Of a DNA stretch of 64,000 nt, positions 10,205-59,205 are shown piece by piece. A program made the translations under genes and the position numbers. The notes under the pieces were generated by a model. The model saw only the letters and a list, made by a program, of their open reading frames with translations, was not told the DNA's origin and did not search any database. The stretch comes from Puniceicoccales bacterium (GTDB lineage Bacteria > Verrucomicrobiota > Verrucomicrobiia > Opitutales > JAIRLG01), in NCBI GenBank assembly GCA_031255915.1, contig JAIRRP010000052.1, positions 2,062-66,061 on the forward strand. The letters run 5' to 3'. Within the stretch, counting starts at the first letter, position 1. Each line of letters opens with the position of its first letter.

Positions 10205-10249
10205 TTTTTTTTGCATCTGAAGAAAAAATATACTAGGAATAACGAAATT
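10205..10249 (+). promoter_or_regulatory. conserved upstream block of the three-member secreted family (copy 1)
   Basis: TTTTTTTTGCATCTGAAGAAAAAATATACTAGGAATAACGAAATT lies directly before the ATG. Near-identical blocks precede the two paralogs at 22133..22181 and 24542..24592 (minus strand). Confidence 0.4.
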
Positions 10250-12289: not shown

Positions 12290-12366
12290 GAGGATATCGA
12301 GATTTTCATCCTCGAGGGGCACTTAAAATTATACCAATCCTCAAGCTGGAACCAGAGATTCCTCTT

Positions 12367-14559: not shown

Positions 14560-14758
14560 GATGAGCTCGTGTCCGCAAGGAGGTAGCGAAGAACCGGCCT
14601 ATCCGGATGGATTATCGTCACCTCTTTTCAAAGCTACAAAAGCTGACACCATTTTAAAGCATCGAAGGAGAAATATCTTAAGCTAGAGTTCATGGACTAG
14701 ATTTTTCTTGCGTCTACGGAGAAAATTCACAGAATAGAATTCCTAGTTTAGGGAAGGT

Positions 14759-30295: not shown

Positions 30296-30816
30296 AAAAG
30301 AGATTGTCCTTTGCGGCACGGGGAAAGCTGGTTTTGGGACAAGGAGTGCACCTATCTTTTAGAACATTAAATTTGGTCAGGAGTGGCTGTGGCTATTTTA
30401 CTATGTTGAAAAGAATAAAAGGTATATATGAAAATCCCACAGATCTCCGATATTTGGGATGAAAAGCGAGCTCGGGTAAAAGGAGAATAGTTTTTTATTT
30501 ACTCAGGAGCTCCGATGAGGGAAATAACTACAGGAAGAGAGGATATTATACGATGTACAAAAACCTCTCTGCCTTGTTGTGTACCCTTAGAAACATTATA
30601 CGTTTAGTAGGTAAACGGACCAGGCGATCTACAGCACATAGCAAAATCTGACGACCGCTGCTTTCTTCCGAACCTGACGGAGTTAGCCGACTTGTTATTG
30701 CACAGAACCCAGCCCGAAATATTAATGGGAAGAAGTCAAAGAAAAAGGCAATGCAAAAATTTTCTTCCTGACTTTCTTCCTGAAATGGTTCTTTTTTGAG
30801 GGATAAAAAGGAGAAC

Positions 30817-37711: not shown

Positions 37712-37856
37712 TTCGGAGGACGTCGTCAAAAAAGTTTAACAAAGGGAAAAAGAGAGGAAAGATGGAATGGAAAAGAAGACATATAGGAGACATAACCTAT
37801 TAGGTGAGTGGAACAAGATGAGAAGGTTGCTATCTGGTTTTAACGACACACTCTAA
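37712..37856. repeat. AT-rich palindromic MITE-like repeat, copy D (variant subtype shared with copy A)
   Basis: ttcggaggacgtcgtcaaaaaagtttaacaaagggaaaaagagagg...gtggaacaagatgagaagg...ttttaacgacacactctaa. The secretin stop codon (cta at 37853..37855 on the plus strand) lies in its terminal ctctaa. Confidence 0.75.
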
Positions 37857-40069: not shown

Positions 40070-40231
40070 ATCCTCCCTAAAATCTTTAGGCTTTAGGCTA
40101 GAATTTTCAAGGAAATAAGAAGGTATAACAGGGGATGCGGCGCGACGGTTTTTTGACAAAGGCTTCGTCACTATTTTGTTGGCCCGGAGAAGGAAATGGA
40201 TGATCCTGACCTTGGGGTGCTCTGCTGGCCT

Positions 40232-40332
40232 GGCCGCCTTTGCGGCGAGGAAAAAATGTAAAGCGGGAGCTTTCATTTTTTCTTGCCGCGGCCCGCATAG
40301 CGGGCCAGAGCCCGAAGGGCTCAAAGGCGGCC
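40232..40332 (-). repeat. GC-rich cloverleaf-like repeat, copy R2 (inverted orientation)
   Basis: ggccgcctttgcggcgaggaaaaaatgtaaagcgggagctttcattttttcttgccgcggcccgcatagcgggccagagcccgaagggctcaaaggcggcc. Its reverse complement is collinear with R4/R5. Confidence 0.85.
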
Positions 40333-40522
40333 AGCCCGACCGATCGACCGGAGACGCTGCCCAGATAATCGCACAAATGCCCATGCGCCTAACGCGAATA
40401 ACCCCAGCCCATCGGAGACGCTTGCCTAGACGCAGGCTCCATTCGCCCGAAGAAAATAATACCACTCCATAAAGTTCATTTACGCCGGTATTTTCTTCCC
40501 CATATTCCCAGAGGTTTACATC

Positions 40523-41427: not shown

Positions 41428-43545
41428 ATGGAAATGCGAGCACCTAGGAGAAGAGTCGTCAAAATGTATCGGGCATATCTTCCCCATTTATTAGCATGGA
41501 CACTACGGTGTTGGGTTGCCCTTTATCCGCAGGCCACGGATGCCGCCGAGGGTATTTACGGCTTTTCCCTTCACGACTTACTCTCTTCCCAAACCACCGA
41601 CCATTCTCCTTATGCCGCGAACCCTCGTCGGGCGTGGACAATGCCCTTCAATGCCCTCATGGTGGCCGCCTGCGCGTACTCCTCCTCTTCTCCATACACC
41701 ACCTCAGGGTATGGCCCACAGGCATCCGTTTTCCCCTTTTTATCAGAAAGGGAAATCTTTGCCCACCACTCACGAACCATTTTACAGCTGCTCACCAAGC
41801 TCTTCTACTTCGAAGAGCATCCCATCCTCAATAAAGAGCAGAAGGAAAAAGCGCGCATCCTGGCATCAAGGGAATGTGTGCCCAACCATCGCGATGTGCT
41901 GCATGACCTGAAGGCAACATTGGCCACTTGGCTGACACTCTATCGCGGACGAAGATTGAGGTGGCAGCACAACACGACACCGCTTTCCAAAGCCTTTCAG
42001 TGGGCCCTTTGGCGTACCTGTCCTTCGGCTGACCCACGGGCCTTTATTCCCCTGGAAGAATGGTATATTCGCATCCACAGCCTGCGGCAAGCACTGTCTC
42101 GCCATCTTTCATCACCATTACACCCCATAGGCAATACTTCCTCTTCCATCTCACCGCCTATACCTCCCCTAACCGCCAAGGGAAAGTATCATCAAATTCT
42201 GCAAGGGCTCGACGACCTTGGAAATGAATGGATTCTCAAGCCATTTCACTTCCAGGAGCATGTCGGAGGTTGCCTCTGCAGCGGTGTATTGCCGCATCTC
42301 TCTCATCTTATCGGCCGCAACGTCATGAGCTATCGCCTGGGAGAATGGATCTGTCCCGGAATGGTCGTCGAAACATACCCATGCCTCATCCCAAATTTTA
42401 CAGCCGAGACCTCTCATCTCAAGACTTTTTCCCTGGGCATATGCATGAGGAAGGCGCGAGGAATTCCCTTCACTTATTATTGGAAACCAAGAACAGAGCA
42501 GGACCATAAGTGCGCAAAACTGGATCAAGAGAGGGACATCGTTCTCTACATATTAAGCCAACTTGTGGCGGGAAAGCGTCCCGACGAGCCGCTGGAATCG
42601 CTTCGGAAAAGCGACGAACTCAACACCCTCTTCGCCTCGGATGGTGCCGAATTACAAGGCGCTCTGGCACAGTGGCAATCCCTCTCTTCCGTGATAAAAA
42701 CTCTTTTTTTCGATGCCTGGAAACGTTACGAAGCGGAAGTAAATCAACTTCACCAGCGGCTCTCTCCGGGTACTCTGGTCCGCAACATCACGCGGATGCA
42801 ATGGCTCGATGCGCTCCTGCTACAGGGCGATCGGCATCATCATAATTTTTATGTCGCCATCGACGAAAATCCCTATGCGATCCAGTTGATCGACAATGAC
42901 CAGTGCCTGGGTCCACTCCACCCAAAATCGCATTATACTGCATTTCCCGCAAAGATTTTTGAAGAGCAGATGGGCGTATCACTCGATGACTACTTCCGCA
43001 ATCGAGGGCCGACCATTGCTGAATTATGGGCCCACCATGGAGGAAAATCCGTCGCTCCTCTTCCGCAAATCATCGACGAAACCACGGCTAAAAATTTTGA
43101 GCATTGTTCTTCAGAAATAGCAGCATCGCTGGCCGATGGTTGGCTGCTACCGGAAGAAATTTCCGCCCTACAGCACCGTCTACAGGCCATCCAAGCATTT
43201 ATAGCACTATTGAGAACTCGCCATCGCGTCATTCCTGAAGACCCCTCTCTTTGGGAAAATTCGTCCATCACCGCCCTCTTGCAATTCCATGATCCGGAGA
43301 TATACGATCCCTTGTGGCCCGAGACTATGTACATTCGAAATTCCTCCGAGAAAACCCAGAGCAATCCCATTCGCGTCCTGACGCTCTACCAGAAACTCTG
43401 CCGAGAAAAAGACCGGGAGCAGAATACGTACCACCAACTGAGAGCCTGTGTCGATGTTCTGCCAAAGTCCGTAATGCCCGAAAAAGCCTCTCCAAAGGAA
43501 TCCTCTTCGGCTTCATCCTCTGTTTCGGCCGGGCGCCGCCTTTGA
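41428..43545 (+). CDS. hypothetical protein with kinase-like catalytic loop (PI3/PI4-kinase type GDRHxxN ... IDND)
   Basis: 705 aa. LLLQGDRHHHNFYVAIDENPYAIQLIDNDQCLG spans residues 463-495 (42814..42912). A candidate ATP-Lys lies in NEWILKPFHF. The last 3 codons and the stop are supplied by repeat R3. Confidence 0.6.
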   Translation: MEMRAPRRRVVKMYRAYLPHLLAWTLRCWVALYPQATDAAEGIYGFSLHDLLSSQTTDHSPYAANPRRAWTMPFNALMVAACAYSSSSPYTTSGYGPQASVFPFLSEREIFAHHSRTILQLLTKLFYFEEHPILNKEQKEKARILASRECVPNHRDVLHDLKATLATWLTLYRGRRLRWQHNTTPLSKAFQWALWRTCPSADPRAFIPLEEWYIRIHSLRQALSRHLSSPLHPIGNTSSSISPPIPPLTAKGKYHQILQGLDDLGNEWILKPFHFQEHVGGCLCSGVLPHLSHLIGRNVMSYRLGEWICPGMVVETYPCLIPNFTAETSHLKTFSLGICMRKARGIPFTYYWKPRTEQDHKCAKLDQERDIVLYILSQLVAGKRPDEPLESLRKSDELNTLFASDGAELQGALAQWQSLSSVIKTLFFDAWKRYEAEVNQLHQRLSPGTLVRNITRMQWLDALLLQGDRHHHNFYVAIDENPYAIQLIDNDQCLGPLHPKSHYTAFPAKIFEEQMGVSLDDYFRNRGPTIAELWAHHGGKSVAPLPQIIDETTAKNFEHCSSEIAASLADGWLLPEEISALQHRLQAIQAFIALLRTRHRVIPEDPSLWENSSITALLQFHDPEIYDPLWPETMYIRNSSEKTQSNPIRVLTLYQKLCREKDREQNTYHQLRACVDVLPKSVMPEKASPKESSSASSSVSAGRRL

Positions 43546-47695: not shown

Positions 47696-47772
<77 letters not shown>

Positions 47773-47794
47773 AAATCGCACCACGCGAAGCATA

Positions 47795-47880
47795 TGGTGC
47801 CCAGGGCGGGACTCGAACCCGCACGTCCTTACAGACAAAGGATTTTAAGTCCTCAGCGTCTACCATTCCGCCACCAGGGC
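47795..47880 (-). tRNA. tRNA-Leu (anticodon UAA), long variable arm
   Basis: The reverse complement reads GCCCTGGTGGCGGAATGGTAGACGCTGAGGACTTAAAATCCTTTGTCTGTAAGGACGTGCGGGTTCGAGTCCCGCCCTGGGCACCA, with anticodon loop CTTAAAA. Confidence 0.9.
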
Positions 47881-48036: not shown

Positions 48037-50376
48037 TTACTGAGTAACTCTGTCTGGACTTACAACCTCACTCCAGGTTTCCCGGAATGCTTCTCCGAGC
48101 AGAGGAGTTATTCCTCGATCTTGATTTTGGGCCTGACCCTGATTACATAGGGCATCATTCCACACCCACCAATCGATATCTAACATCTCCAACTGGGTAT
48201 CTATCTCTATCTGCTGCTCTTCCGTTAAATTCCGATTTTGTCTTTTTTCTAATAAATGGTTCATCGCCGCCACCTTCAGCTCCCGCAACTTCGCATAAGC
48301 CTCCCCCTCCTTATAAGTCCCCCACTCAGCAAGATCCTCTCCCTCAGCAGAAAACCATTGCCAATTAAAAAGATCACTCTTTTCTGCCATATCAACATAT
48401 TGACAGGTAAAATGGTCTTTGCAATTCCAACCGACGATTTCCTCTGTATAAGTATTATCTACACTATTATGTACAATATCATATACAGGGTTAGACTCAT
48501 CATACGGAATTATATAAGGAATTTCACCCTGCACACGCCAGAACCTGAAATTTGGATTACCAAACTTATGATAATTCGGTTCATAAGTATAATAAATTTT
48601 ATCGAAATACGCATGGTTTAGGATTGTCAAAAATGCTCTGTAATGATCATTTTTCTGAATATCAGGATAAACTTTAGCTAAATACCTCAGCTCTAGGAGA
48701 CGAGTACCGGCTAAATTTAGACAAGACGAGGGCAGAGGTTGTTGCGGTGAATTTTCCTCTCCGGAGAATTCCATACCGAAGGTTTCATCACCCTCCAATT
48801 TTCTTTGAAGCACGACAAAATGCATCTCCACTCCCTGCGGATGTATCAAAAAGAAGCAAACGCTTTGCGGAGACCCATCCTTCAAGCGATCCAGCAAATC
48901 CGGCGTTAAGGCATACCACTCACAGGCATCTTTTGCCTCTTGAAGATTATTCAGACTATTTTCAGGAACCACATTCCTCAATAGAGGGACACCTATTCCG
49001 GATATAGCCGGAAAGTTTCGGCATAAAAGACCAGCCTTCTGGTCATAATATCGGTTCCAGCCATCGGGTGTAGCCAAAATGACCGCCACGGGGATCTGCT
49101 GCCCAATAGGAGCCGATAGAGGCAACGAAAGCCCTTGTATGCTATTGTCGTCGTATTTCAATATGAAAAACTGGAGCGTTATCCGCGATAATGGCAGCCC
49201 AAGACGATTCGCTAAAACTGAACAGTCCCATCCTCCAAGAGACGAGGGATCTGGCAAAATGTCTAACACATTTTTACCCGTAAAAAACCTGTTCCGCATG
49301 CCAGGAAGTTCATTCCAAAAGACCCTCTCCCTGGCTAGTTCTTCACGAAATCTCTCTAAACTGATGCCAGCCACATGAAGAGACATCGTTGTGTTGTTAA
49401 AATCTTTAAAAGATGGATTTTTTCCAAAAGTCTCTTGCATTTTTATTTCCGCCTTTCCCAGTGAATTCCAACCATTTCCTAGTTTTCCATACAACGAGAG
49501 CATCGTGCAATTTTTCACCAAAGGATGTTCCGGAACTGGCGCCGGCTGTGTCACTACTGGTCGTGGCTGATTTACCGGTTGTGATGGCGGCAAATTTGGG
49601 AGGCTCACAGGTGGCTGTGATGTCGGTTGTTGCGCCACTGGTGAAGATATAGGAATTATCCTACCGTCGAGCGCTTGCCGGTAATTTGCAGGCACTACAC
49701 TACTTATTTGATTCGAAAGATTTCCCTGTTTTCCACGCATAAAAATGTACTTTATCTGACCTAAAACGACATAGACCTGCATAAAAAATTGTTCATTCTC
49801 ACGATGTGAGACAATAAATGGCTTCTCTGTGGAAATATTATTGATTAAAATATTAAAATCTTGCTCTCCATTCCCCGTGATTTTGTGTTGGCCCTGCGTT
49901 ACTGAGGAGTCATAAAACACCCAAGTTTCGCTGCTGTTAGAACTTTCTGTAACGCTCAATTTAAAGTTCAATGTACGGGTTGGTTGGGTTCGGGTATCTC
50001 CTGATCCTAAATAGAGCATCCTATAGACCACCGACACATTTTGAAGAGGGTAATTGCTCTTCACCGTCTGACGCGCTCTAGCTATCTGTGGCAAGATTTC
50101 CTTTTTATTTATTTTTTCCAATATGCCCTGCATAATATTTCCAGCTTGATACTGAGAACTTTCATTGAATATCGCACCATAGTCTGGAAATTGCATCCAT
50201 AATTTATTATTGTCGTAGTCACCAATTCCGTCATCGCGGGTATTTTCATCGTAAGGCACCCACTGATTACCTTGCTTTATGGACACCGTCACCTTGCCCG
50301 CCGACATCGAGGAAACTCCCATCACACAACAGACGCCCGCAAGCGCCCACAAACGAATATATTTTTGTAATAACAT
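48037..50376 (-). CDS. large secreted hypothetical protein (779 aa)
   Basis: Signal peptide MLLQKYIRLWALAGVCCVMGVSSMSAGK and a central Pro/Gln tract AQQPTSQPPVSLPNLPPSQPVNQPRPVVTQPAPVPEHP. Visibly A+T-rich, adjacent to the tRNA pair, with no recognisable motif. Confidence 0.65.
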   Translation of the reverse strand: MLLQKYIRLWALAGVCCVMGVSSMSAGKVTVSIKQGNQWVPYDENTRDDGIGDYDNNKLWMQFPDYGAIFNESSQYQAGNIMQGILEKINKKEILPQIARARQTVKSNYPLQNVSVVYRMLYLGSGDTRTQPTRTLNFKLSVTESSNSSETWVFYDSSVTQGQHKITGNGEQDFNILINNISTEKPFIVSHRENEQFFMQVYVVLGQIKYIFMRGKQGNLSNQISSVVPANYRQALDGRIIPISSPVAQQPTSQPPVSLPNLPPSQPVNQPRPVVTQPAPVPEHPLVKNCTMLSLYGKLGNGWNSLGKAEIKMQETFGKNPSFKDFNNTTMSLHVAGISLERFREELARERVFWNELPGMRNRFFTGKNVLDILPDPSSLGGWDCSVLANRLGLPLSRITLQFFILKYDDNSIQGLSLPLSAPIGQQIPVAVILATPDGWNRYYDQKAGLLCRNFPAISGIGVPLLRNVVPENSLNNLQEAKDACEWYALTPDLLDRLKDGSPQSVCFFLIHPQGVEMHFVVLQRKLEGDETFGMEFSGEENSPQQPLPSSCLNLAGTRLLELRYLAKVYPDIQKNDHYRAFLTILNHAYFDKIYYTYEPNYHKFGNPNFRFWRVQGEIPYIIPYDESNPVYDIVHNSVDNTYTEEIVGWNCKDHFTCQYVDMAEKSDLFNWQWFSAEGEDLAEWGTYKEGEAYAKLRELKVAAMNHLLEKRQNRNLTEEQQIEIDTQLEMLDIDWWVWNDALCNQGQAQNQDRGITPLLGEAFRETWSEVVSPDRVTQ

Positions 50377-50455
50377 ATTTTTTACCCTTTCAGCTTATGT
50401 GTCGTAGCATGAAAAAGGAATAATGTCAACTTTTGTCGGAACATTAGAATCAAAT

Positions 50456-50989
50456 CTAATGCGTCATAGTAGTATTACTTATATTATCATCCTTTTTTCT
50501 CCTCTTTTCAAAAAAAACACGGACGAGCTCGTAACATTCCTCCGACATGATTCCAAAACGGACACGCGGATGGTGATTCCATGTGAGCAGTTGATGCAAC
50601 GCTAACTTTCCCCCTAAGCAGCCCATTTTTTCATCCGAAAAGCCAAACACAATCTCCCCAACGCGTGACAAAATAGCCGCGCCAGCACACATTGGACAGG
50701 GTTCCTTCGTGACGTACAGAATACTTTCGTTCAAGCGCCAGTCGCCTAAAAAACGCGAGGCCTGTGCCATTGCCAATATCTCCGCATGCGCCGTAGCTTC
50801 TTTCCGGGTCTCGGCGAGATTGTGCGCCGAGGCAATCACCTCCTGTTCGCGTACAATCACAGCCCCTATGGGTACTTCTTCCTCCTCCCAGGCAGTGATC
50901 GCTTCATTGTAGGCCATCGACATGAAAAAGAGATCATCTTTCTGCGATGGCAACGGATATTTGCGGCGAAATGGACAGGCGAATGTCAT
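50456..50989 (-). CDS. tadA: tRNA-specific adenosine deaminase
   Basis: Zinc motifs HAEILAM and PCPMCAGA. The start is uncertain (Met at 50989 chosen; the ORF is open to 51025). Confidence 0.85.
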   Translation of the reverse strand: MTFACPFRRKYPLPSQKDDLFFMSMAYNEAITAWEEEEVPIGAVIVREQEVIASAHNLAETRKEATAHAEILAMAQASRFLGDWRLNESILYVTKEPCPMCAGAAILSRVGEIVFGFSDEKMGCLGGKLALHQLLTWNHHPRVRFGIMSEECYELVRVFFEKRRKKDDNISNTTMTH

Positions 50990-51098
50990 GAGATTCCTCA
51001 TAATACGGATGCCAAGTCCCTGCAAAGCAATTTTTTTCCAAAAAATGCAAACGCCACTTTACCACGAACGGATATGGATCCTCTTGGAGGATACAGAC

Positions 51099-51473
51099 CT
51101 ACTGCCGACAGTAGCGGATTTCTATCACCCGGCGACATTCCGGCATCTGCTGCAACCGCCGCAAAATTTCATCCCGTTTCAGTATTAAAGCGTATTGTGC
51201 CACACTGTTCGCGACCGCTATAAACAGTATACTGTCGCGCACAACGCGATGAGGCTGACAATAATTCGCCAATGCAGGGCCCACGATTTCCGGCCAACGA
51301 CGCTCTATAATCTCCTCCAGACGCAATAATGCTTCCGGCAGATGTTCCTTCAACCATCGCTGCATTACATTGCCCATCGATTTTTCCGATCGCTCCACGG
51401 CGCGACTAGCATTCGGCGGTAACCCGCGCAAATTCGCAATCATATTTTCAATGCGCCGCGAAAAGTAAGGCAT
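51099..51473 (-). CDS. DUF721 (DciA-like) protein
   Basis: WPEIVGPALANYCQPHRVVRDSILFIAVANSVAQYALILKRDEILRRL fits the DUF721 pattern (W..ivG..la..t.p..l.dg.L.v.v.s..w..eL). Confidence 0.55.
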   Translation of the reverse strand: MPYFSRRIENMIANLRGLPPNASRAVERSEKSMGNVMQRWLKEHLPEALLRLEEIIERRWPEIVGPALANYCQPHRVVRDSILFIAVANSVAQYALILKRDEILRRLQQMPECRRVIEIRYCRQ

Positions 51474-51476
51474 AGG

Positions 51477-54227
51477 TTAAAAATCGTAATGCAAAACTCC
51501 ATTATGGAGATTTTCCATTGCCTCATAGAGCGAGGAAGGGAGCGGTATCTCTTCATAAATATCTGACGGCAATGGCGCCATTTTCAATGCGTGTATCGTC
51601 TTGAGACCGTATTCCCAAGCGCGCTGATAGAGGAACGATAGGGCTGCCATATTAGCGATATTCAGGTAAATGTCGAGACATTGCGATTGATCTATCCATT
51701 TCTGCCGCACCGATGCTGCCTGTAAGAGGGATTCCGTGTCCAACACAAAAGCCGTTTTAAAAATGTCCCGAATGGGTTCCGTCATCGGCAAAAGAGCGGT
51801 CAATTCCCCTCCGCAGCAACGCATCTTTTCATAGAATTCCTGTGTCCAGTACCCTGCCATTTGGAGGTGCTTGACCAGGGCATCGCTGAAAAAAGCAATT
51901 TTCTCATCGGCCGAAAAGTGTTTTGAAAAAACATGACCTGTTGCCGGTGCCACCCCGGGATAGCACGCCATGAGCCGTGCTGTGGAACGCGTTGATGACA
52001 GCGCCATGAGATAGGCATTCCGCATCCCTTCTGCCTTCATACGCCCGCGCAGCGTTTCCCATGGCAAAGACGCTCGGTGTTCCGATTCCTTTATCTCACA
52101 ACAGGATGGACAGCGATGGGATTCCCATGGAAATTTTCCCTGTGCCCAAAGGGATTGCCCAAAGCACTCATAGCGCCCCTTCTCTTGGGCTAAATCGACC
52201 GATGCCTCAATCGCATAATAGGAAAACATTTCCAGGCAATCGTCCTGAAATGCTATGGACTGAGGATCATCGAAAGCCAAGTTCTTTTGATAAAGAGCAT
52301 CCTGGAGTCCTGCGATTCCCAAGCCAAGCGGTCGATAGCGCCGCGTCAGCTTTTCACTCGTCTGGGCAGGGAAGTAATTGGCATCGAGCATCGCGTCGAG
52401 CGCGCGAACCGCCAAATGGATCGTCCGCCTCAGCCGAGGTAAATCGAGATTCCCATGCGCATCTAGATGCCGATGGAGAATAATTTCACCGGACGGACAA
52501 CCGGTGGAAGCTTCCGGTTCGGCATGTAAGAGATGTTCTGAACCCACACTGCTGCTATGGATCGTCGATTCGAGCATACGACGCTCATTACAACGGTCTT
52601 TAAAGGCGATGTGAGGGAATCCGGTTTCGTAGATTCGGGCCATAATCTTTCCCCATAACCCGGCAGCAGGAATGGTTCTACTCCAGCACTTCCCATCGCG
52701 TGCCTCCTGTTCGAACTCCCGATAACATTCCTCAAAATTCTGACCGTAAAGCGAGAGTAATTCGCGCGTCTCTTCTACGCGAAAGAGTGTCCAATGCTCA
52801 TCAGAGCGCACCCGCTTCATGAAAATATCCGGAATCCATAATTCCGTACCAAGGCCGTTGGTAGAGTTTTCCTGTGCATCGCGATGTTTGAAATCGATGA
52901 AAGCCTCGATGTCCGCATGCCATATTTCCAGAGAAGCATTGCCATAGATTTTCGATCCTTCTCCTCCCGGTCGCGCGATGGCGAGCTGATGTTGATGGAG
53001 CTCCAAAAATGGCATCACACCGCCACTTCCCTGACGCGTACCGCGAATAGGGCTACCACTTCCCCGCACAGCCGTCCAGGAACCACTTAACGCAGCTCCC
53101 CATTTCACGGCCAAAGCGTTATCGGCAATTCCCTTGATCATGATGCTCTCCAGATCATCCTGTACCTGATAGATATAGGTGGACAACATTTGCGCCCTTA
53201 CGGTCCCGGCATAGCGGAGTGCCGTTGGAGCAACACAAAAGAGTCGATCTTTAAAAAGTCTGTAGAGTTCCAAAACCCACTGCTCCCGCTGAGGAGACGC
53301 TTCTGCCAGGAAAATACCCATGGCGATCCGCATCCAAAAGAATTGCGGCAATTCCCAACAAATGCCTGTTTCCCACTCGCATAAAAGATAATTCTCCAGC
53401 AGCTTATGCATGGCAATACAATCCCATTGCCTATCAGCCGATACATCCAATGCCGCCGCTAATTTCTCTAAATCCCATGCGAGCATTTCGGGATGTAGTA
53501 GACCCGCCTCGACGGCTTCCTGGATATAACGCGGAAATGCCTCGCGATACTTCTTCTCCAAAGCTGCCGCATCTTCCTGCGCAGGATCCCAATCCAAAAT
53601 CTGTGAACAGAGAAAACTCCATTGTAACTGTGCGGAAAAAAAATTGAATCCAGGATCAACCGTCATTAAACCCCTCGCCTGGCGCAACAAATGCTCTTCC
53701 CAGTCTTTCTGAGCCATCTCCCCTTGCAGGTTATGGCACAGCCGTTGTGCGATTTGCTTAGGCGATAGCGGTAGATCCAGTTCCTGCGTTGCGAATAGAA
53801 TCCATGGTAATAAGTCTAGCTCTGTCCATAACCGACTCCGTCCATTCTTATCCCTCAAAAGGAAGATAGCTTCTTGCTGATCATTTGTTTTTTCTTCTTG
53901 GCGTTGCTTGGTCCGTTCAGAACGATATAGGATATAGGCCTCCGCAATTTTAAAATATCCACGGCGCATCAATTCTTCCTGGACGAGATCCTGTACCTGT
54001 TCGAGCGCGATGGTTCTTACTTTTAGGGTACAGACCCGCTGTGTAACCGCTTGAGCGATTTCCTGCGCCACCGGTAAAGGATTTTGATGCTGTGCGACAA
54101 AGGCCTCACCGACCGCTTTCTCGATCTTCTTACTGTCCCAACTGACTTCCTCTCCATTTCGCCTGATAAAACGCAGGGATGGCTGTATAGGGGATGATTT
54201 ACACCCATCATCTGTAAAAGGACTCAT
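51477..54227 (-). CDS. nrdA: ribonucleotide reductase large-subunit homolog with ATP-cone; catalytic residues apparently not conserved
   Basis: ATP-cone LRFIRRNGEEVSWDSKKIEKAV...AYILYRSER. R1-like blocks are RGSGSPIRGT, LEIWHADIEAFIDFK, ETGFPHIAFKDRCN and LAVRALDAMLD. The finger-loop position reads TIHSSSVGSEH instead of TI..SNLC.EI, and the tail reads GLKTIHALK instead of ..LYY. Confidence 0.8.
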   Translation of the reverse strand: MSPFTDDGCKSSPIQPSLRFIRRNGEEVSWDSKKIEKAVGEAFVAQHQNPLPVAQEIAQAVTQRVCTLKVRTIALEQVQDLVQEELMRRGYFKIAEAYILYRSERTKQRQEEKTNDQQEAIFLLRDKNGRSRLWTELDLLPWILFATQELDLPLSPKQIAQRLCHNLQGEMAQKDWEEHLLRQARGLMTVDPGFNFFSAQLQWSFLCSQILDWDPAQEDAAALEKKYREAFPRYIQEAVEAGLLHPEMLAWDLEKLAAALDVSADRQWDCIAMHKLLENYLLCEWETGICWELPQFFWMRIAMGIFLAEASPQREQWVLELYRLFKDRLFCVAPTALRYAGTVRAQMLSTYIYQVQDDLESIMIKGIADNALAVKWGAALSGSWTAVRGSGSPIRGTRQGSGGVMPFLELHQHQLAIARPGGEGSKIYGNASLEIWHADIEAFIDFKHRDAQENSTNGLGTELWIPDIFMKRVRSDEHWTLFRVEETRELLSLYGQNFEECYREFEQEARDGKCWSRTIPAAGLWGKIMARIYETGFPHIAFKDRCNERRMLESTIHSSSVGSEHLLHAEPEASTGCPSGEIILHRHLDAHGNLDLPRLRRTIHLAVRALDAMLDANYFPAQTSEKLTRRYRPLGLGIAGLQDALYQKNLAFDDPQSIAFQDDCLEMFSYYAIEASVDLAQEKGRYECFGQSLWAQGKFPWESHRCPSCCEIKESEHRASLPWETLRGRMKAEGMRNAYLMALSSTRSTARLMACYPGVAPATGHVFSKHFSADEKIAFFSDALVKHLQMAGYWTQEFYEKMRCCGGELTALLPMTEPIRDIFKTAFVLDTESLLQAASVRQKWIDQSQCLDIYLNIANMAALSFLYQRAWEYGLKTIHALKMAPLPSDIYEEIPLPSSLYEAMENLHNGVLHYDF

Positions 54228-54362
54228 GGCATATGGGCATGAATAAAAACGGATTCAGCTCAACGTTAAAATCCACGTGAATCCTTTTCTCTTCTATAGC
54301 CCGTTCATTAGCTGATGCTCGGCATTGGCATCATTACAGTGCTTTAAAATAGTCCCTGTCTC

Positions 54363-54503
54363 CTAGAGGGTGCCATCAAAAATAAAAGATTGATAAAGGA
54401 AAAAGAAGGAATGGAAAAGAGGACACACAAGAGACTTGTTTCTGCATTCCACATTCCCTCTATCTCTCTTTTTGTTGCCTGATTTTGATGACACCCTCCA
54501 GAG
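54363..54503. repeat. AT-rich palindromic MITE-like repeat, copy E
   Basis: ctagagggtgccatcaaaaataaaagattgataaaggaaaaagaaggaatggaaaagagg...cttgtttctgcattccacattccctc...ttgcctgattttgatgacaccctccagag, with ~20-bp terminal inverted repeats. Confidence 0.85.
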
Positions 54504-54539
54504 ACAGGACCTCCTTTGCGGATAAAAGCTTTGCAATTC

Positions 54540-56122: not shown

Positions 56123-57646
56123 TCAGGCGTTTGTCTCTCCTGATGCAATCCTCGCTTTTTCAATCCGGACGCTTAATTTTTTGACAGAGAATAACCAAAT
56201 ACTGCAAATGCAGATAAAGATACCAAAGACATAGGGCGCAATGGTAAAGTAGGTAGCACCTGATATCAGCGCCAACATAGCCGCCTGAATCCAGGCACCT
56301 CCCGCTTTACCCAGGCGGCCACCCACGACATCCACAACCGCTTTCCCCTTTACCTTCATCTCCTCACTAAGCGGAATATAGGCCATCTCCTTCGTCAGAT
56401 CAAAAAGCGCATATTTCGTCGATTTCGCAATCGTTAAAATGACGGTACCCAAAAGAACAGCTGCCACCAATGGGGTTATACCCACGGTGCCCAAAAGGCC
56501 CGAAAGGTTCTCCTTAAAGAGGACAAATATGAAGAATAAACCTCCCAAAAGGAGCGTGATGGCCGGTGTAATAGCCGCGGCCGTGAACCAGCGGAAAGCG
56601 CGCAGTACATTCCCTCCGACAATCATCATGATGATGGAACAAATGCCGGTCCAAAAGGTGTAGCGGCTCATATAGGCATTGTACGCATTCGGATTGGTAC
56701 AATACTGCCCCAACTGCTTCTTCCAAAGCCCTTCCATCAGGTTAATACTAATGCCGTAACATACGATTAAAGAGGCAATGAGGAGTAGGTAAGGTGACAT
56801 GAAGATATCCTTCAAACTTTGCCAAAAGGGTGCTTTTTTCTTCTTCTTGGAGACGCCTGGCAACTCCGGCTTGTCGTAAAAACGCTTATCGGGTAGCACA
56901 TAGGCATAGATCCAACGATAGATGAGCATTGTCGATATCCCTGAAAACACAACCATACCCATGAGCCAATTCAGGGAAATCTGCCATGGATCCATCCCAG
57001 CGGCCGATGTATCGGTCATTACGGAAAATTTTTCCCCTAACCATCCGGAGAATAGCAACGCCACCTGGGCCATAAGCCCAAAAAAGGCGTACACACGCTT
57101 CGCCTCTGATGTCTTCGTGACCTGATTGGCGAATTGCCAAAAGGAGAGGGATAAAATGGCACTGCCCCAAATTTCAGCGAGGATATAGAAGAGTGCATAG
57201 GACCAAATGCCGACGATGGCCAGTGGCCATCTCAAAAATTCCGGTGCGGCCGCTTGCCATGCATGTACCGTCTCTACGGAGGGATGCAGTAGGCTTAAAT
57301 TAGGGTAAATGAGGAACGCGAAAGCCCCAAAAAAAGCGATAAACGGCGTGAGCGTGGCGTAGAACAACTTCTCGTTACTCAAAATATCACTCGCTTTCGC
57401 GTACAAAAGCATGAAAATGACCGCCGATGGCATGACGCAAAAGCCCTTCAGGAAGGGAATGACCTCCGCATCGGAGCCCGGTCCCGTGACCACGAGAGCA
57501 TCTTTGATATTCCTCAGGCAGGAATAATTGAATAAGATGAAAAAGAAAATCAAACTCATCGGAATAACCTTCTTCAACTCGTAAGCATGGATGGGGAAGA
57601 AAACCTTACGCCATTTACCGAACTCTGGCTGCATCACCTCAGACAT
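56123..57646 (-). CDS. tlcA: ATP/ADP translocase (TLC/NTT nucleotide transporter family)
   Basis: 507-aa multi-pass protein. FFPIHAYELKKVIPMSLIFFFILFNYSCLRNIKDALVV...AEVIPFLK...ILAEIWGSAILSLSFWQFANQVTKTSEAKRVYAFFG parallels chlamydial Npt1 / rickettsial Tlc almost motif for motif (from memory). Confidence 0.88.
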   Translation of the reverse strand: MSEVMQPEFGKWRKVFFPIHAYELKKVIPMSLIFFFILFNYSCLRNIKDALVVTGPGSDAEVIPFLKGFCVMPSAVIFMLLYAKASDILSNEKLFYATLTPFIAFFGAFAFLIYPNLSLLHPSVETVHAWQAAAPEFLRWPLAIVGIWSYALFYILAEIWGSAILSLSFWQFANQVTKTSEAKRVYAFFGLMAQVALLFSGWLGEKFSVMTDTSAAGMDPWQISLNWLMGMVVFSGISTMLIYRWIYAYVLPDKRFYDKPELPGVSKKKKKAPFWQSLKDIFMSPYLLLIASLIVCYGISINLMEGLWKKQLGQYCTNPNAYNAYMSRYTFWTGICSIIMMIVGGNVLRAFRWFTAAAITPAITLLLGGLFFIFVLFKENLSGLLGTVGITPLVAAVLLGTVILTIAKSTKYALFDLTKEMAYIPLSEEMKVKGKAVVDVVGGRLGKAGGAWIQAAMLALISGATYFTIAPYVFGIFICICSIWLFSVKKLSVRIEKARIASGETNA

Positions 57647-58392: not shown

Positions 58393-59205
58393 TTAAGGGG
58401 AAGTCCCGTTACGGCTCAATGAAGCTTGTGGAGGAGTTACCCCGTTGGTATTTCCACTTTGAGGTGTTGTCGATGACCATTCCGGCGCCTTGAACGGATG
58501 ACGGCTATGTTTCTTCAAGTAGATGAACCACTGCGTTTTGTCCTCAAATTGCAAGTAGAACCCTTCCGGTGGGTTCATCTTCCCCGAAGACGGTTTTATG
58601 GGCTGCAAAACGATATCCCATTTATCGCTGTCGAAGGTATAGTAGGCATAACCAAAATATATGCAGTGATGGAACAAAACCACATGCTCCGTGGCCGGAA
58701 GCCGCCAACGGCCGACTTTCGTATCCAGAGGCAAAAGGCGGTAGTGCAACCTTACACACTGCTTTTGGGCCTCGTATTCTAGATGGTACTCGATCACTTT
58801 CCCCTGTGGATTGCGGATAAACGGAGGCGTTGTGGAATTCTGCCAATACAGATGGAAATTATCCGGCGATGGATCCATATCTGTCCAATAGGGCCCTAAA
58901 TCTGTGTCTGAATTTTTGGAGCGAATCAAGGAGGCATACATTCCGTGTAATTTCACATAAGATTCCCGCAGGCTGTCTTCCAAAAACTTCTTCGCCACCA
59001 CCTGACCTTCCTCTTCCCAGTCCGGCTGTGCTTCGCGCTCCCACAATTCCACAAAGGTGGTGATCAGAGATACCGCCGCGAGTAAGACGCTGCCACCTAG
59101 CGCCAAGGCCAAGAGCATTTCGATCAGTGAAAACCCATTTCGTTTCACGTAGAGAGTTCTAGCCACATTTTGATAACTGTCAACGCGGCGAAAATGTCGC
59201 TCCAC
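58393..59205 (-). CDS. pseudopilin-like protein (prepilin-type N-terminal domain)
   Basis: KRNG|FSLIEMLLALALGGSVLLAAVSLI has Gly-1, Phe+1 and Glu+5. The rest is unrecognised. Confidence 0.65.
   Translation of the reverse strand: MERHFRRVDSYQNVARTLYVKRNGFSLIEMLLALALGGSVLLAAVSLITTFVELWEREAQPDWEEEGQVVAKKFLEDSLRESYVKLHGMYASLIRSKNSDTDLGPYWTDMDPSPDNFHLYWQNSTTPPFIRNPQGKVIEYHLEYEAQKQCVRLHYRLLPLDTKVGRWRLPATEHVVLFHHCIYFGYAYYTFDSDKWDIVLQPIKPSSGKMNPPEGFYLQFEDKTQWFIYLKKHSRHPFKAPEWSSTTPQSGNTNGVTPPQASLSRNGTSP

Follow-up and report, generated by a model that had tools for sequence, protein, structure and literature searches.

An apparently non-catalytic homolog of class I ribonucleotide reductase alpha in termite-gut Puniceicoccales, a candidate nucleotide sensor

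The locus and its protein family

The 64-kb stretch of DNA analysed here (64,000 nucleotides, hereafter the window) derives from a termite-gut verrucomicrobial metagenome-assembled genome (MAG) of the Puniceicoccales and carries an nrdA-like gene in a bacterial chromosomal context of housekeeping genes, tRNAs and the SRP RNA (Table 1). The open reading frame, described as intact in an earlier note on this DNA, indeed encodes 916 aa with no internal stop and ends with TAA at 51477..51479. Over 5,685 bp, an independent assembly (Logan, SRR14710884) matches it at 100% identity. The best solved relative of the protein is the P. aeruginosa NrdA (5im3, E 6e-143 over residues 16-883 with HMMER), and NCBI annotates it as 'ribonucleoside-diphosphate reductase subunit alpha'. 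It scores 409.4 against TIGR02506 (cut-off 341.05) and 619.9 against the closest equivalog, NF005544, which is under the cut-off of 965.

The protein belongs to a monophyletic family, here termed the dead NrdA family, found in Puniceicoccales/Opitutales MAGs from the guts of lower termites. Its members are 40-86% identical and form three subgroups, A (P0001-6), B (P0007-16, P0018 and P0247) and C (P0017, P0019 and P0020). The public annotation of the family as NrdA arises because the TIGR02506 cut-off is passed.

Table 1. Features of the nrdA-like gene, its product and its neighbours in the window (catalytic residues in E. coli numbering)
Feature	Position	Strand	Remarks
dciA (124 aa)	51099..51473	-	Pfam PF05258; separated by 3 nt from the end of the nrdA-like gene
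nrdA-like gene	51477..54227	-	916-aa class I RNR alpha homolog, catalytically dead as judged from its residues; MDR0445118.1
C-terminal tail (887-916)	51480..51569	-	Homologous to the redox-shuttle tail CSLxAMxNGGECExCQ; all three Cys replaced
H879-A880	51588..51593	-	Replace radical-transfer Tyr730-Tyr731 (HMMER and MAFFT alignments)
Ten-stranded barrel, degenerate active site (349-879)	51591..53183	-	Pfam PF02867, E 3e-113
C577	52497..52499	-	Retained equivalent of redox Cys462, in the motif STGCPSGE
Finger loop (556-567)	52527..52562	-	IHSSSVGSEHLL; N437 to S560, thiyl Cys439 to G562, E441 = E564
Loop 2 remnant (P420-S425)	52953..52970	-	Q294 and R298 equivalents replaced by P and S
Loop 1/specificity-site segment (R388-G403)	53019..53066	-	RGSGSPIRGTRQGSGG; R262, I268 and R269 equivalents kept
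D357	53157..53159	-	Equivalent of D232, kept, just upstream of loop 1 (alignment)
T350	53178..53180	-	Replaces redox Cys225 (HMMER and MAFFT alignments)
Ribonuc_red_lgN all-alpha domain (270-344)	53196..53420	-	Pfam PF00317, 45.1 bits
ATP-cone (21-106)	53910..54167	-	Pfam PF03477, 65.6 bits
NTP/NDP exchange transporter (TLC/NTT)	56123..57646	-	PF03219, E 6e-173; TIGR00769, 535 bits

Domain architecture and predicted fold

The protein has the architecture of an R1 subunit, with an all-alpha domain, a ten-stranded barrel and the optional ATP-cone. The latter, already noticed at the N-terminus by eye, is confirmed by its Pfam match and aligns to residues 30-132 of 5im3, which form the N-terminal ATP-cone of P. 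aeruginosa NrdA. In the AF2 model (pLDDT 83.3, pTM 0.81) the R1-like fold is predicted to be intact: Foldseek matched it to solved R1 structures with TM of 0.80-0.92, and TMt to the P. aeruginosa and human R1 was 0.84-0.92. Domain order and fold are the same as in canonical class I alpha proteins with N-terminal ATP-cones, such as P. aeruginosa NrdA (5im3; TM 0.80/0.84) and the verrucomicrobial NrdA P0063. The additional N-terminal extension of about 130 aa of the verrucomicrobial NrdA is missing only in subgroup A of the dead family. Neither a zinc ribbon nor an HTH or other DNA-binding domain was detected by Pfam.

Loss of catalytic positions

Catalytic positions were assigned by HMMER alignment to 5im3 and human RRM1 (3hnc) and by MAFFT alignments with 99 canonical relatives and with the genuine E. 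coli NrdA from NC_000913.3, all of which were concordant on every assignment, so that four independent alignments establish the losses. The active-site motif is kept in 99/99 canonical relatives, nearly all of which end in CExCQ.

The earlier note held that all catalytic residues had been lost, which is overstated because E441 and C462 are retained. Among seven core positions and three conserved tail cysteines (10 in all), five and three are lost, respectively. The by-eye reading was right for the redox Cys225, the finger loop (with G562, at 52542..52544, in place of the thiyl-radical cysteine and S560 in place of N437), the tyrosine pair, the substrate loop (APTxTI...CIEP reading SSTRST...GVAP) and the missing C-terminal CxxC, the tail ending in the Cys-free SSLYEAMENLHNGVLHYDF. 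It was wrong for the second redox cysteine, where the alignment had been shifted: C577 corresponds to C462 and is invariant across all dead and canonical sequences aligned. Hence only E441 remains of the thiyl-radical site formed by C439 with N437 and E441, only C462 remains of the C225/C462 pair, and nothing remains of the Y730/Y731 dyad or of the C-terminal cysteine pair. The tail has low pLDDT in the AF2 model, with a helix predicted at 900-911, and its terminus is conserved within the subgroup (SL..AM..L..G...YDF).

Across the family, C225, Y731 and the tail cysteines are gone from all three subgroups, the C225 position being T/A in A, S in B and D in C. By established enzymology, no class I/II RNR turns over without these residues. 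Judged by its residues, the nrdA-like protein is no longer able to generate or use a thiyl radical or to reduce ribonucleotides. The E441 equivalent is a glutamate (E564) in subgroups A and B and a serine in C. Subgroup B keeps N/G437, C439, E441, C462, Q294 and R298, which suggests that the subgroups may differ in function.

These retained residues are also the basis for supposing that the protein is still an enzyme with a changed, non-radical reaction, or that subgroup B, having kept C439, might use another radical source. The conservation of E564 in two subgroups and of C577 family-wide, the phosphate-loop residues T746, S748 and T749 kept in the ortholog of the window, and an omega of about 0.1 in the barrel would all fit. 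However, position 562 reads G/S/D/D/D/E among six subgroup A orthologs and is thus unconstrained, the T209, G253, Q294 and R298 equivalents are gone in subgroup A, the AF2 model has no evident cofactor-binding insertion, and the residues missing from all subgroups are those named above as required for turnover, which makes a changed enzyme distinctly improbable.

Preservation of the allosteric sites

In the alignments, the ATP-cone and the loop-1/specificity site are the best-preserved parts of the protein. Canonical-invariant columns of the ATP-cone are kept at 80, 91 and 100% in subgroups A, B and C, compared with 44-68% in other regions. The ATP-cone residues R22, R23, W30, E76, Q79, Y98, Y101 and R102 are invariant in dead and canonical proteins alike, as are the specificity-site residues D232, R262 and I268. 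Within the loop 1 segment, the change of N to R398 is a signature of the dead family. Only subgroup A has lost loop 2 together with several residues that contact the substrate; the Q294 and R298 equivalents, which couple effector to substrate, are still present in subgroup B. In sum, the ATP-cone, loop 1, the specificity-site residues, E441, C462 and the homology of the tail are held in common with canonical class I alpha, and C225, N437, C439, Y730/Y731, the tail cysteines and Q294/R298 are what the window protein lacks by comparison.

Because the allosteric nucleotide sites are the best preserved, a non-catalytic binding of ATP, dATP and dNTPs is proposed, for which the kept residues count as indirect evidence: nucleotides would still be bound, and sensing or regulation would be the selected function. 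About 15 further dead NrdA clusters were found among 1.8 billion representative proteins, some of independent origin, and in nearly all of these metagenomic clusters the ATP-cone residues named above are unchanged. A different canonical lineage is clearly the source of several, as judged by their cones of the F30/E83/K22 type.

Selection and persistence

Compared with the 86%-identical ortholog P0002, dN/dS of the gene is 0.107 (NG86) or 0.208 (YN00), with an unsaturated dS of 0.4-0.64. By region, omega ranges over 0.08-0.13 for the ATP-cone, the helical domain and the barrel (0.08 in the all-alpha domain, about 0.10 in the barrel) and is 0.19 in the 18-residue N-terminal segment and 0.25 in the C-terminal tail, which is the least constrained part. 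Neighbouring housekeeping genes range from 0.04 to 0.24, similar to the 0.1-0.2 of the nrdA-like gene. The gene is therefore under purifying selection, as the dN/dS comparison suggested in the earlier note was meant to reveal, and is not a decaying pseudogene.

At canonical-invariant columns, the three subgroups share 11 derived residues, including N398R, D413H (N in P0247), H631Y and R882K, which indicates a single origin and long persistence. It is also worth noting that, between the same lineages, the dead NrdA evolves at about twice the rate of NrdD (identities of 59% for the dead NrdA vs 82% for NrdD in one comparison, and of 41 vs 75% in another) and is therefore less constrained than a core enzyme.

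Host-associated bacteria accumulate decaying genes, and a functionless relic, being either an nrdA that was inactivated not long ago and is about to disappear or an assembly or annotation artefact, would be consistent with this faster evolution. Moreover, some other dead clusters do look recently decayed, for example P0266, with 1128 bits to NF005544. Against it stand an omega of 0.1-0.2, the absence of frameshifts and stops among more than 25 family members, the 11 derived residues common to subgroups diverged to about 40% identity and, for an artefact, the identical independent assembly. Such a reading is very improbable, omega and the shared derived residues effectively refuting it. The proposal that the gene is not broken but encodes a pseudoenzyme is supported by the residue losses, by omega and by the three-branched family of intact reading frames; loss of essential residues together with purifying selection, the operational mark of a pseudoenzyme, is found here.

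Genomic neighbourhood and the class III reductase

The nrdA-like gene is probably co-transcribed with dciA. In subgroup A, the conserved neighbourhood reads TLC, HAD, response regulator, nrdA-like, dciA and tadA-like, and includes the nucleotide transporter that had been recognized near the gene and is identified by its TIGR00769 match. The nrdA-like-dciA order is kept in all three divergent subgroup A lineages (the window with L001, L002 and L078), the gap in the window being 3 nt, which could point to a replication-linked scaffold, or to a checkpoint that depends on dNTPs and acts on the replisome or on helicase loading, rather than to a regulator of dNTP synthesis. However, the dciA linkage is missing in subgroups B and C, and the gene after dciA is a housekeeping tadA-like deaminase, so the cluster may be a mere string of housekeeping genes; a replication role is improbable.

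No nrdB, nrdD or second nrdA was found within the 64-kb window, which extends the earlier statement that no nrdB is adjacent. In GTDB reference genomes, nrdB lies within 10 kb of 0/9 dead loci vs 66/70 canonical loci, and none was found at the further dead-family loci L001-L005 and L076 (L003 being on the same contig as L084). Sister lineages with a dead nrdA carry an apparently intact class III NrdD. In L005 and L079, nrdD adjoins the dead nrdA upstream, the two forming a same-strand tandem; for Gsp477_bin174, the contig with nrdD is exactly as long (271,232 bp) as the one with the dead copy and is presumably the same; one NrdD has an accession number that differs by 207 from that of P0004 (subgroup A), within a single MAG series; and an NrdD is present in the same metagenome as P0003. 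The earlier suggestion that nucleotide import may stand in for synthesis in this organism is hence not the best reading.

The NrdDs of this clade could themselves be the target. In 12/12 NrdDs examined from the termite-gut Puniceicoccales/Opitutales NrdD clade to which the dead NrdA carriers belong, a deletion of about 15 aa removes the ATP-cone hairpin IRKRDGRxVxF, which is kept in four other Opitutales NrdDs. By Pfam, no ATP-cone is found in P0171, and that of P0124, at 23.3 bits, falls short of the threshold of 25.8. The dead NrdA might thus act in trans as an allosteric partner, supplying the lost ATP/dATP overall-activity sensing through binding to NrdD or NrdG, and the tandem arrangement in L005 and L079, with an NrdR-box-like palindrome upstream of the nrdD there, would fit such a partnership. 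It is nevertheless doubtful: adjacency to nrdD is confined to one closely related lineage, the genes being unlinked in A, C and the rest of B, and cone deletion and dead NrdA may go together only because both trace back to a single event in a common ancestor. Furthermore, many natural NrdDs without an ATP-cone manage without a partner, and we know of no interaction between a class I alpha and NrdD.

Comparison with known non-catalytic homologs

The betaherpesvirus proteins M45 of MCMV and UL45 of HCMV are dead R1 homologs with new host-directed functions. As in these, a full-length R1 fold has outlived the catalytic residues and the R2 partner and is selected for a non-reductase role. The nrdA-like protein differs in being bacterial rather than viral and in its intact ATP-cone and specificity site, which suggest a function tied to nucleotides and not to host signalling. 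An effector of the herpesvirus kind, exported into a flagellate host and binding the host RNR or other proteins, would suit an organism that has, besides an NTP/NDP transporter, numerous large orphan proteins, the CesT-type chaperone gene in L003, the conserved YDF that ends the subgroup A tail and the presence of protist endosymbionts among termite-gut relatives (PMC8204192). However, neither a signal peptide nor an RHIM-like motif ([IV]Q[IVLC]G) was found in the protein, its tail shows homology with that of canonical NrdA, not with that of NrdB, linkage to a secretion system is absent, and conservation of the ATP-cone and specificity site would be left unexplained, so that an effector is hardly credible.

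In yeast, Rnr4 is a catalytically dead paralog of the RNR small subunit and an obligatory structural partner of Rnr2. It resembles the present case as an RNR subunit turned pseudoenzyme with a non-catalytic role in dNTP supply, but it is a beta subunit within a still-active class I holoenzyme, whereas no class I partner, canonical alpha or beta, was found linked to the nrdA-like gene and the active RNR of its relatives is of class III. NrdR, the ATP-cone and zinc-ribbon repressor of nrd operons, is a DNA-binding protein of about 150 aa. The proposed reading of ATP/dATP by an ATP-cone for a regulatory, non-catalytic output would be similar; only the ATP-cone is common to both, the nrdA-like protein having 916 aa, a full R1 body and no zinc ribbon. 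NCBIfam also contains NF005401 (PRK06948), a curated bacterial 'ribonucleotide reductase-like protein' family apart from bona fide RNRs. P0001 reaches 71.9 bits where the cut-off is 906, and the two have nothing in common beyond membership of the superfamily.

A proposed sensor and its implications

Taken together, the nrdA-like protein is best read as a non-catalytic nucleotide-binding sensor or regulator descended from NrdA, to which we give a probability of roughly 55%. The ancestor would have been a class I alpha subunit of Verrucomicrobia, of the P. aeruginosa-like type that carries multiple ATP-cones. Reductase function would have been lost as Puniceicoccales/Opitutales of the lower-termite hindgut dropped the O2-dependent NrdAB for the anaerobic class III NrdD, and the R1-like fold would then have been kept by selection without catalysis. 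By binding ATP, dATP and dNTPs, the protein is predicted to sense or regulate the nucleotide pool, and its most likely output would be nucleotide-dependent oligomerisation or partner binding. Since no partner gene conserved across subgroups A, B and C was found in the loci compared, the output mechanism is a guess.

More speculatively, bacteria may repeatedly turn class I RNR alpha into a stand-alone sensor of the nucleotide pool, which in anaerobic termite-gut Opitutales would respond to dATP and ATP and regulate the dNTP supply in trans, most plausibly through the cone-crippled NrdD. If this tentative view is true, the dead NrdA would be a regulatory pseudo-subunit bridging two RNR classes, and the other dead clusters that retain the ATP-cone would exemplify it as well.

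RNR is among the most intensively studied enzymes, and both genome annotation and metagenomic surveys take its alpha subunit as diagnostic of aerobic dNTP synthesis. If the dead family is not a real reductase alpha, this inference would be wrong in metabolic reconstructions of these gut symbionts. To our knowledge, dead RNR alpha has until now been known essentially from herpesviruses; in keeping with the earlier note, full-text searches of a literature library with incomplete coverage turned up no equivalent in bacteria. The ~15 further dead clusters, some independent and nearly all cone-conserved, suggest that non-catalytic RNR alpha may be a recurrent, overlooked class of bacterial nucleotide-binding proteins. 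The dead family would thus represent a natural experiment in which catalysis was stripped and the allosteric machinery kept under selection, and the dead NrdA would offer a clean system for what the ATP-cone and the specificity site can do alone.

Catalytic Residues and Fold of the NrdA-Like Protein

The nrdA-like gene is an intact open reading frame of 916 codons with an ATG start, a TAA stop and zero internal stops, and run SRR14710884, assembled independently in Logan, matches window positions 48802..54486 base for base. Its product (P0001) is identical to MDR0445118.1, titled by NCBI 'MAG: ribonucleoside-diphosphate reductase subunit alpha [Puniceicoccales bacterium]'; it is annotated publicly as a bona fide reductase because it passes the cut-off of NCBIfam TIGR02506 (409 bits against 341). 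HMMER matched the protein to the solved structures of P. aeruginosa NrdA (5im3; E 6e-143, query residues 16-883), human RRM1 (E about 1e-76, 252-887), yeast R1 (E about 3e-71, 252-877) and E. coli R1 (E about 1e-35, 254-769). An AlphaFold2 model, built with 48 relatives as input, reached a mean pLDDT of 83.3 and a pTM of 0.81, low confidence being limited to the termini and a few loops, and Foldseek comparison with R1 structures gave TM scores of 0.80/0.84 to 5im3 and 0.92 when normalised to human RRM1. The protein is thereby predicted to be a complete, well-folded class I ribonucleotide reductase (RNR) alpha subunit.

Five defining features of a functional NrdA are missing from it. The catalytic residues were checked in HMMER pairwise alignments to 5im3 and 3hnc, in a 20-sequence MAFFT alignment, in a 123-sequence alignment including 99 canonical relatives, and against E. 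coli K-12 NrdA from NC_000913.3, in which C225, N437, C439, E441, C462, Y730, Y731, C754 and C759 were confirmed by position; all four alignments were concordant. The redox-pair C225 of E. coli is replaced by T350, the finger-loop N437 by S560, the thiyl-radical C439 by G562, Y730 and Y731 of the radical relay by H879 and A880, the substrate contacts T209 and G253 by P334 and A379, and Q294 and R298 of loop 2 by P420 and S425. The canonical tail of verrucomicrobial NrdA, C-x10-C-x2-C, has all three cysteines replaced, with its homology still recognisable (canonical CSLDAMLNGGECESCQ versus SSLYEAMENLHNGVLHYDF here). The earlier note, a by-eye reading of the sequence, had proposed that all catalytic residues were lost. 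This holds for eight of the ten residues on which radical chemistry and turnover directly depend, C225, N437, C439, Y730/Y731 and the tail cysteines being gone as described and the codon coordinates given for G562 and H879/A880 being exact. It does not hold for the finger-loop E441 (E564), nor for the second redox cysteine, C462, where the by-eye alignment was shifted: its equivalent is C577 in 'STGCPSGE', which is invariant across every sequence examined. With this one correction, the observation is real and robust.

We know of no RNR mechanism that would be possible without the finger-loop cysteine and, judged from its residues, the protein should be unable to act as a ribonucleotide reductase of any known mechanism. 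That it carries a changed enzymatic activity instead is quite improbable. The conserved C-terminal ...YDF was also considered as a mimic or fusion of the NrdB C-terminal tail, a reading which was rejected because the dead tail matches CSLxAMxNGGECExCQ, the tail of canonical NrdA, save that the cysteines are replaced; canonical verrucomicrobial NrdB ends in ...GHVDDDEL. A CPSC motif within insertion loop 706-717 (pLDDT below 50) is present in this ortholog but absent from the subgroup A homologs P0003 and P0004, and is therefore probably not functional.

Table. Coordinates of the features discussed (window positions unless a residue range or another locus is named)
Feature	Location	Strand	Remark
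nrdA-like gene	51477..54227	-	
ATP-cone	residues 21-106		Pfam
R1 all-alpha domain	residues 270-344		Pfam
R1 barrel	residues 349-879		Pfam, E 3e-113
CPSC motif	residues 706-709 (52110-52121)		
Inverted repeat	54350-54510	-	response-regulator/nrdA-like spacer
NTP/NDP exchange transporter (NTT) gene	56123-57646	-	
ORFs without Pfam domain	10211-16435, 19997-24541, 35851-37599, 41428-43545, 48037-50376		eight ORFs, 558-779 aa
Secretin gene	37853-40465	-	
Prepilin N-terminal methylation motif gene	28194-29048	+	
Prepilin N-terminal methylation motif gene	58393-59205	-	
Small SRP RNA and three tRNA genes	30615-30714	-	
 	25889-25963	+	
 	47699-47880	-	
nrdD with ATP-cone deletion	L005:4129-6279		716 aa
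nrdD with ATP-cone deletion	L006:10001-12109		
Canonical nrdB (P0466)	L158:6197-7452		Puniceicoccales MAG, JGI 3300042659
CesT-family gene	L003:6110-6613		Gsp477_bin29

A Narrow Family of Catalytically Dead NrdA Homologs

Among the best 120 matches in a 5.8-billion-protein database, 21 lack the canonical residues (P0001-P0020, P0024) and 99 are canonical ('NCECYY + CxxC'); with three more cluster members (P0121-P0123), 24 of the 123 aligned proteins are dead. Subgroup A (P0001-6, 24, 121, 122; 916-975 aa) has T/A at C225, S/G at N437, G/S/D/E at C439, H[AGT] in place of YY and a tail ending in ...YDF. Subgroup B (P0007-16, 18, 247; about 1040 aa) keeps C439, E441, C462, Q294 and R298, and in some members N437, and has lost C225 (to S), Y731 (to D/E) and the tail cysteines. 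In subgroup C (P0017, 19, 20; about 1035 aa), C225 is replaced by D and E441 by S, and C439 is either G or kept. An N-terminal extension of ~130 aa, found in the canonical proteins and in B and C, is lost in A.

Eleven derived residues (A192P, G272A, N339Y/F, N398R, D413H, M459L, T541A/L, H631Y, V740L, I752L and R882K) are common to the three subgroups at columns invariant in canonical verrucomicrobial NrdA, and argue for a single origin of the dead family, placed by a crude NJ tree as sister to canonical verrucomicrobial NrdA. The distribution of losses suggests that NrdB was lost first, together with the reductant path and the radical relay, and the thiyl cysteine later, the crude tree suggesting that the cysteine was lost independently in A and within C.

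The A/B/C family is a narrow lineage: in a library of 1.84 billion representatives clustered at 50% identity, it is reduced to three full-length clusters and one fragment (P0024). Scanning metagenome contigs with P0001 returned only canonical NrdAs at ≤34% identity, the family not being found in that collection. When GTDB was scanned with one genome per species, nine family loci (L078-L086) emerged, two in Opitutales MAGs and seven in 'Puniceicoccales bacterium' MAGs (Roe453_bin126, Nc350_bin44, Ncb351_bin52, Cd354_bin103, Pcl387_bin12, Gsp477_bin29 and Gsp477_bin174); the nine genomes are JAITRB01, JAIDVZ01, JAISYR01, JAITAS01, JAIRMM01, JAITIO01, JAIRYE01, JAIRXR01 and CAZOAG01. The named members all stem from a single large MAG submission (MDR accessions; JGI metagenomes 3300042596-3300042659). 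In this MAG set, the Gsp477 bins derive from the lower termite Glyptotermes and the Roe453 bins from Roisinitermes ebogoensis (PMC11707648). In termite hindguts, the endosymbionts of amitochondriate flagellates are known to include a verrucomicrobial cluster (PMC8204192). The dead family is old and, as far as sampled, restricted to anaerobic termite-gut Opitutales.

Screening 150 representatives of the 50%-identity library revealed about 15 further full-length NrdA-homolog clusters without C225, N437/C439, YY and CxxC (P0249, P0251-P0254, P0265-P0269, P0276, P0279, P0301, P0361 and P0391). These calls were made from the full alignment, a motif regex having over-called 'no finger loop', probably through inteins interrupting the motif. 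One of them, P0251, belongs to a groundwater-type, non-termite 'Verrucomicrobia bacterium' MAG (HBA82828.1/OHE74313.1). Several carry part of the derived-residue signature and may form part of an older, verrucomicrobial clade of dead proteins, while others have proteobacterial-type cones (K22/F30/E83) and group with different canonical NrdAs, which points to an independent origin; at least two origins are apparent. Nearly all keep the ATP-cone residues, and all match NF005544 best, P0265 and P0266 exceeding its equivalog cut-off.

Purifying Selection and Conservation of the Allosteric Sites

Comparison with the 86%-identical ortholog P0002 (locus L076) revealed purifying selection, with an omega (dN/dS) of 0.107 (NG86) or 0.208 (YN00) at an unsaturated dS of 0.40-0.64; omega is 0.10 against the 66%-identical P0003 (L002). 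By region, it amounts to 0.19 in the N-terminal segment (1-18), 0.13 in the ATP-cone, 0.09 in the helical region, 0.08 in the all-alpha domain, 0.10 in the barrel and 0.25 in the C-terminal tail, and the syntenic neighbours dciA, deaminase, HAD hydrolase and NTT range from 0.04 to 0.24. Within the same lineages, dead NrdA evolves faster than class III RNR (59 versus 82% and 41 versus 75% identity). Constraint on dead NrdA is real, yet looks weaker than for an essential catalyst. The protein is folded and under selection and is no pseudogene; that it is a functionless relic is very improbable. The pseudoenzyme proposed as a candidate in the earlier note is hence supported by the lost residues, the intact ORF, an omega of about 0.1-0.2 and a fold predicted to be intact.

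Across 396 columns that are ≥97% invariant in 98 canonical relatives, subgroups A, B and C keep 53, 61 and 53%, respectively; for the ATP-cone columns the values are 80, 91 and 100%, and for every other region 44-68%. Cone residues R22, R23, W30, A38, F43, E76, Q79, Q83, A95, Y98, Y101, R102 and R109 are invariant in dead and canonical proteins. In P. aeruginosa NrdA, its counterpart by alignment is the N-terminal ATP-cone (residues 30-132), an assignment made from this alignment and the conservation statistics, MAFFT putting the single cone of E. coli on the degenerate second cone region. The specificity-site residues matching E. coli D232, R262, I268 and R269 (human D226, R256 and I262) are invariant and loop 1 is conserved save for a family-wide N to R398, while subgroup A has lost both loop 2 and the substrate contacts. 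By these measures, the allosteric nucleotide sites are the most conserved features of dead NrdA. We estimate at roughly 0.55 the probability that dead NrdA would still bind nucleotides, ATP/dATP at its cone and a dNTP at the site in the dimer interface, and would be retained as a sensor or regulator of the nucleotide pool.

NrdB, NrdD and the Working Reductase

At the canonical verrucomicrobial locus L007, nrdB adjoins nrdA. In the GTDB scan, nrdB lies within 10 kb at 66 of 70 canonical loci versus none of the nine dead loci, and it was found neither at the other dead-family loci, L001-L005 and L076 (L003 being the same contig as L084), nor in the 64-kb window, which extends the earlier remark that none is adjacent. 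The window has no NrdD either. The one Puniceicoccales NrdB found in the termite MAG series, P0466, is canonical (81% identical to the reference verrucomicrobial NrdB), and no link to a dead-NrdA genome was found for it. Downstream of its gene, the first 36 nrdA codons (EDVALKRAIAIP) are followed by two in-frame stops before the contig end, which may reflect decay in progress or an assembly end effect.

In two dead-family loci, L005 and L079, nrdD lies directly upstream of the dead gene and encodes the glycyl-radical motif RIVGYLRP, the CCRL active-site segment and a CxxC zinc site. The contig encoding NrdD P0160, from the same MAG series, is 271,232 bp long, as is JAIRXR010000011.1 (Gsp477_bin174), which carries a dead copy; the two are presumably one contig. 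P0171 (MDR3143658) and the subgroup A protein P0004 (MDR3143865) almost certainly come from the same MAG because their accessions are 207 apart, and P0169, 82% identical to P0171, shares its metagenome with P0003. Among the NrdDs found, the one closest to MDR0445118 in accession is about 27,000 away, and the best phylogenetic candidate for the MAG of the window, P0167, comes from metagenome 3300042596, on a contig of 2.6 kb that is unbinned; for the MAG of the window, we infer NrdD from the sister lineages. These anaerobic termite-gut Opitutales have no linked NrdB and use NrdD. A consensus scan for NrdR boxes returned box-like sites only upstream of nrdD in L005 and of the canonical nrdB in L007 (single sites, three mismatches each), and none upstream of dead genes.

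All 12 termite-gut Puniceicoccales/Opitutales NrdDs examined, a clade which includes the dead-NrdA carriers (P0171, P0175, P0169, P0167, P0124, P0160, P0164, P0183, P0128, P0137, P0150 and P0154), share a deletion of ~15 aa removing the 'IRKRDGRxVxF' nucleotide-binding hairpin of the N-terminal ATP-cone, and Pfam detects no ATP-cone in P0171. Four other Opitutales NrdDs (P0207, P0212, P0234 and P0239) retain the hairpin. In the most specific form of the sensor or regulator reading, dead NrdA could accordingly supply in trans the regulation of NrdD, a role also suggested by the tandem genes in one lineage; because this amounts to one evolutionary correlation and one adjacency, we regard it as tentative and on the unlikely side.

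Genomic Neighbourhood and Host Association

In subgroup A (window, L002 and L078), the gene order is NTT, HAD phosphatase, OmpR-type response regulator, nrdA-like, dciA and tadA-like deaminase, with 3 nt between nrdA-like and dciA. This dciA operon would fit a replication-linked role, which is nevertheless rather improbable. The neighbours in B and C are unrelated to those of A, and no partner gene is conserved across the whole dead family at the A, B and C loci compared. The 312-bp spacer upstream of the nrdA-like gene, without an Rfam match, contains a long imperfect inverted repeat predicted to form a ~160-nt hairpin (dG -74 kcal/mol; z-score -6.8 versus shuffles), single-copy in the window, which could be a 5′-UTR structure, a terminator/attenuator or a mobile-element relic.

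The nucleotide transporter noticed earlier is indeed nearby and is an NTP/NDP exchange transporter (TIGR00769, 535 bits). Among the subgroup A lineages it is 79-87% identical with an omega of 0.04, far above its neighbours in conservation, which suggests a central place for nucleotide or energy parasitism in these organisms. The content of the window (housekeeping genes, NTT and eight large ORFs without a Pfam domain) fits a host-associated lifestyle. The Pfam-less ORFs between 10 and 16 kb and between 20 and 24.5 kb fall within stretches of lower GC (0.41-0.45 versus about 0.50 elsewhere), and the sole counterpart of orf779 in the syntenic locus L002 is 29% identical; these ORFs may encode lineage-specific proteins of a host-associated bacterium, acting at its surface or as effectors. 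The secretin and the two prepilin-motif genes point to type II secretion or a type IV pilus, and the SRP RNA and tRNA genes confirm that the context is that of an ordinary bacterial chromosome. In the Gsp477_bin29 lineage, the dead nrdA (subgroup B) has a gene of the CesT family of type III secretion chaperones 3.4 kb upstream, which hints at host interaction.

Relation to Known Pseudoenzymes and Significance

To our knowledge, RNR-alpha pseudoenzymes have been a viral phenomenon until now. Dead NrdA resembles M45/UL45 of betaherpesviruses in being an RNR-derived pseudoenzyme but is bacterial and lacks a RHIM; that it is a herpesvirus-like host effector is extremely improbable. Yeast Rnr4 is also RNR-derived but is a beta, whereas dead NrdA is an alpha subunit. 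NrdR is similar in proposed role only, dead NrdA having no DNA-binding domain, and with 71.9 bits against a cut-off of 906 the protein falls outside the NCBI 'RNR-like' family NF005401. Dead NrdA hence belongs to none of these four. The author of the earlier note knew of no bacterial equivalent, and we found no description of a catalytically dead bacterial NrdA or of the organism in the literature searched, most subscription journals lying outside the search. A 2022 phylogeny of the RNR family describes no such homologs (PMC9531940).

What is new here is that an RNR-alpha pseudoenzyme forms a bacterial family which is under selection and whose allosteric sites are intact. That a dead NrdA is conserved, and its ATP-cone pristine, would surprise the RNR specialist, and the family poses a testable question: what RNR allosteric domains do once they are freed from catalysis.
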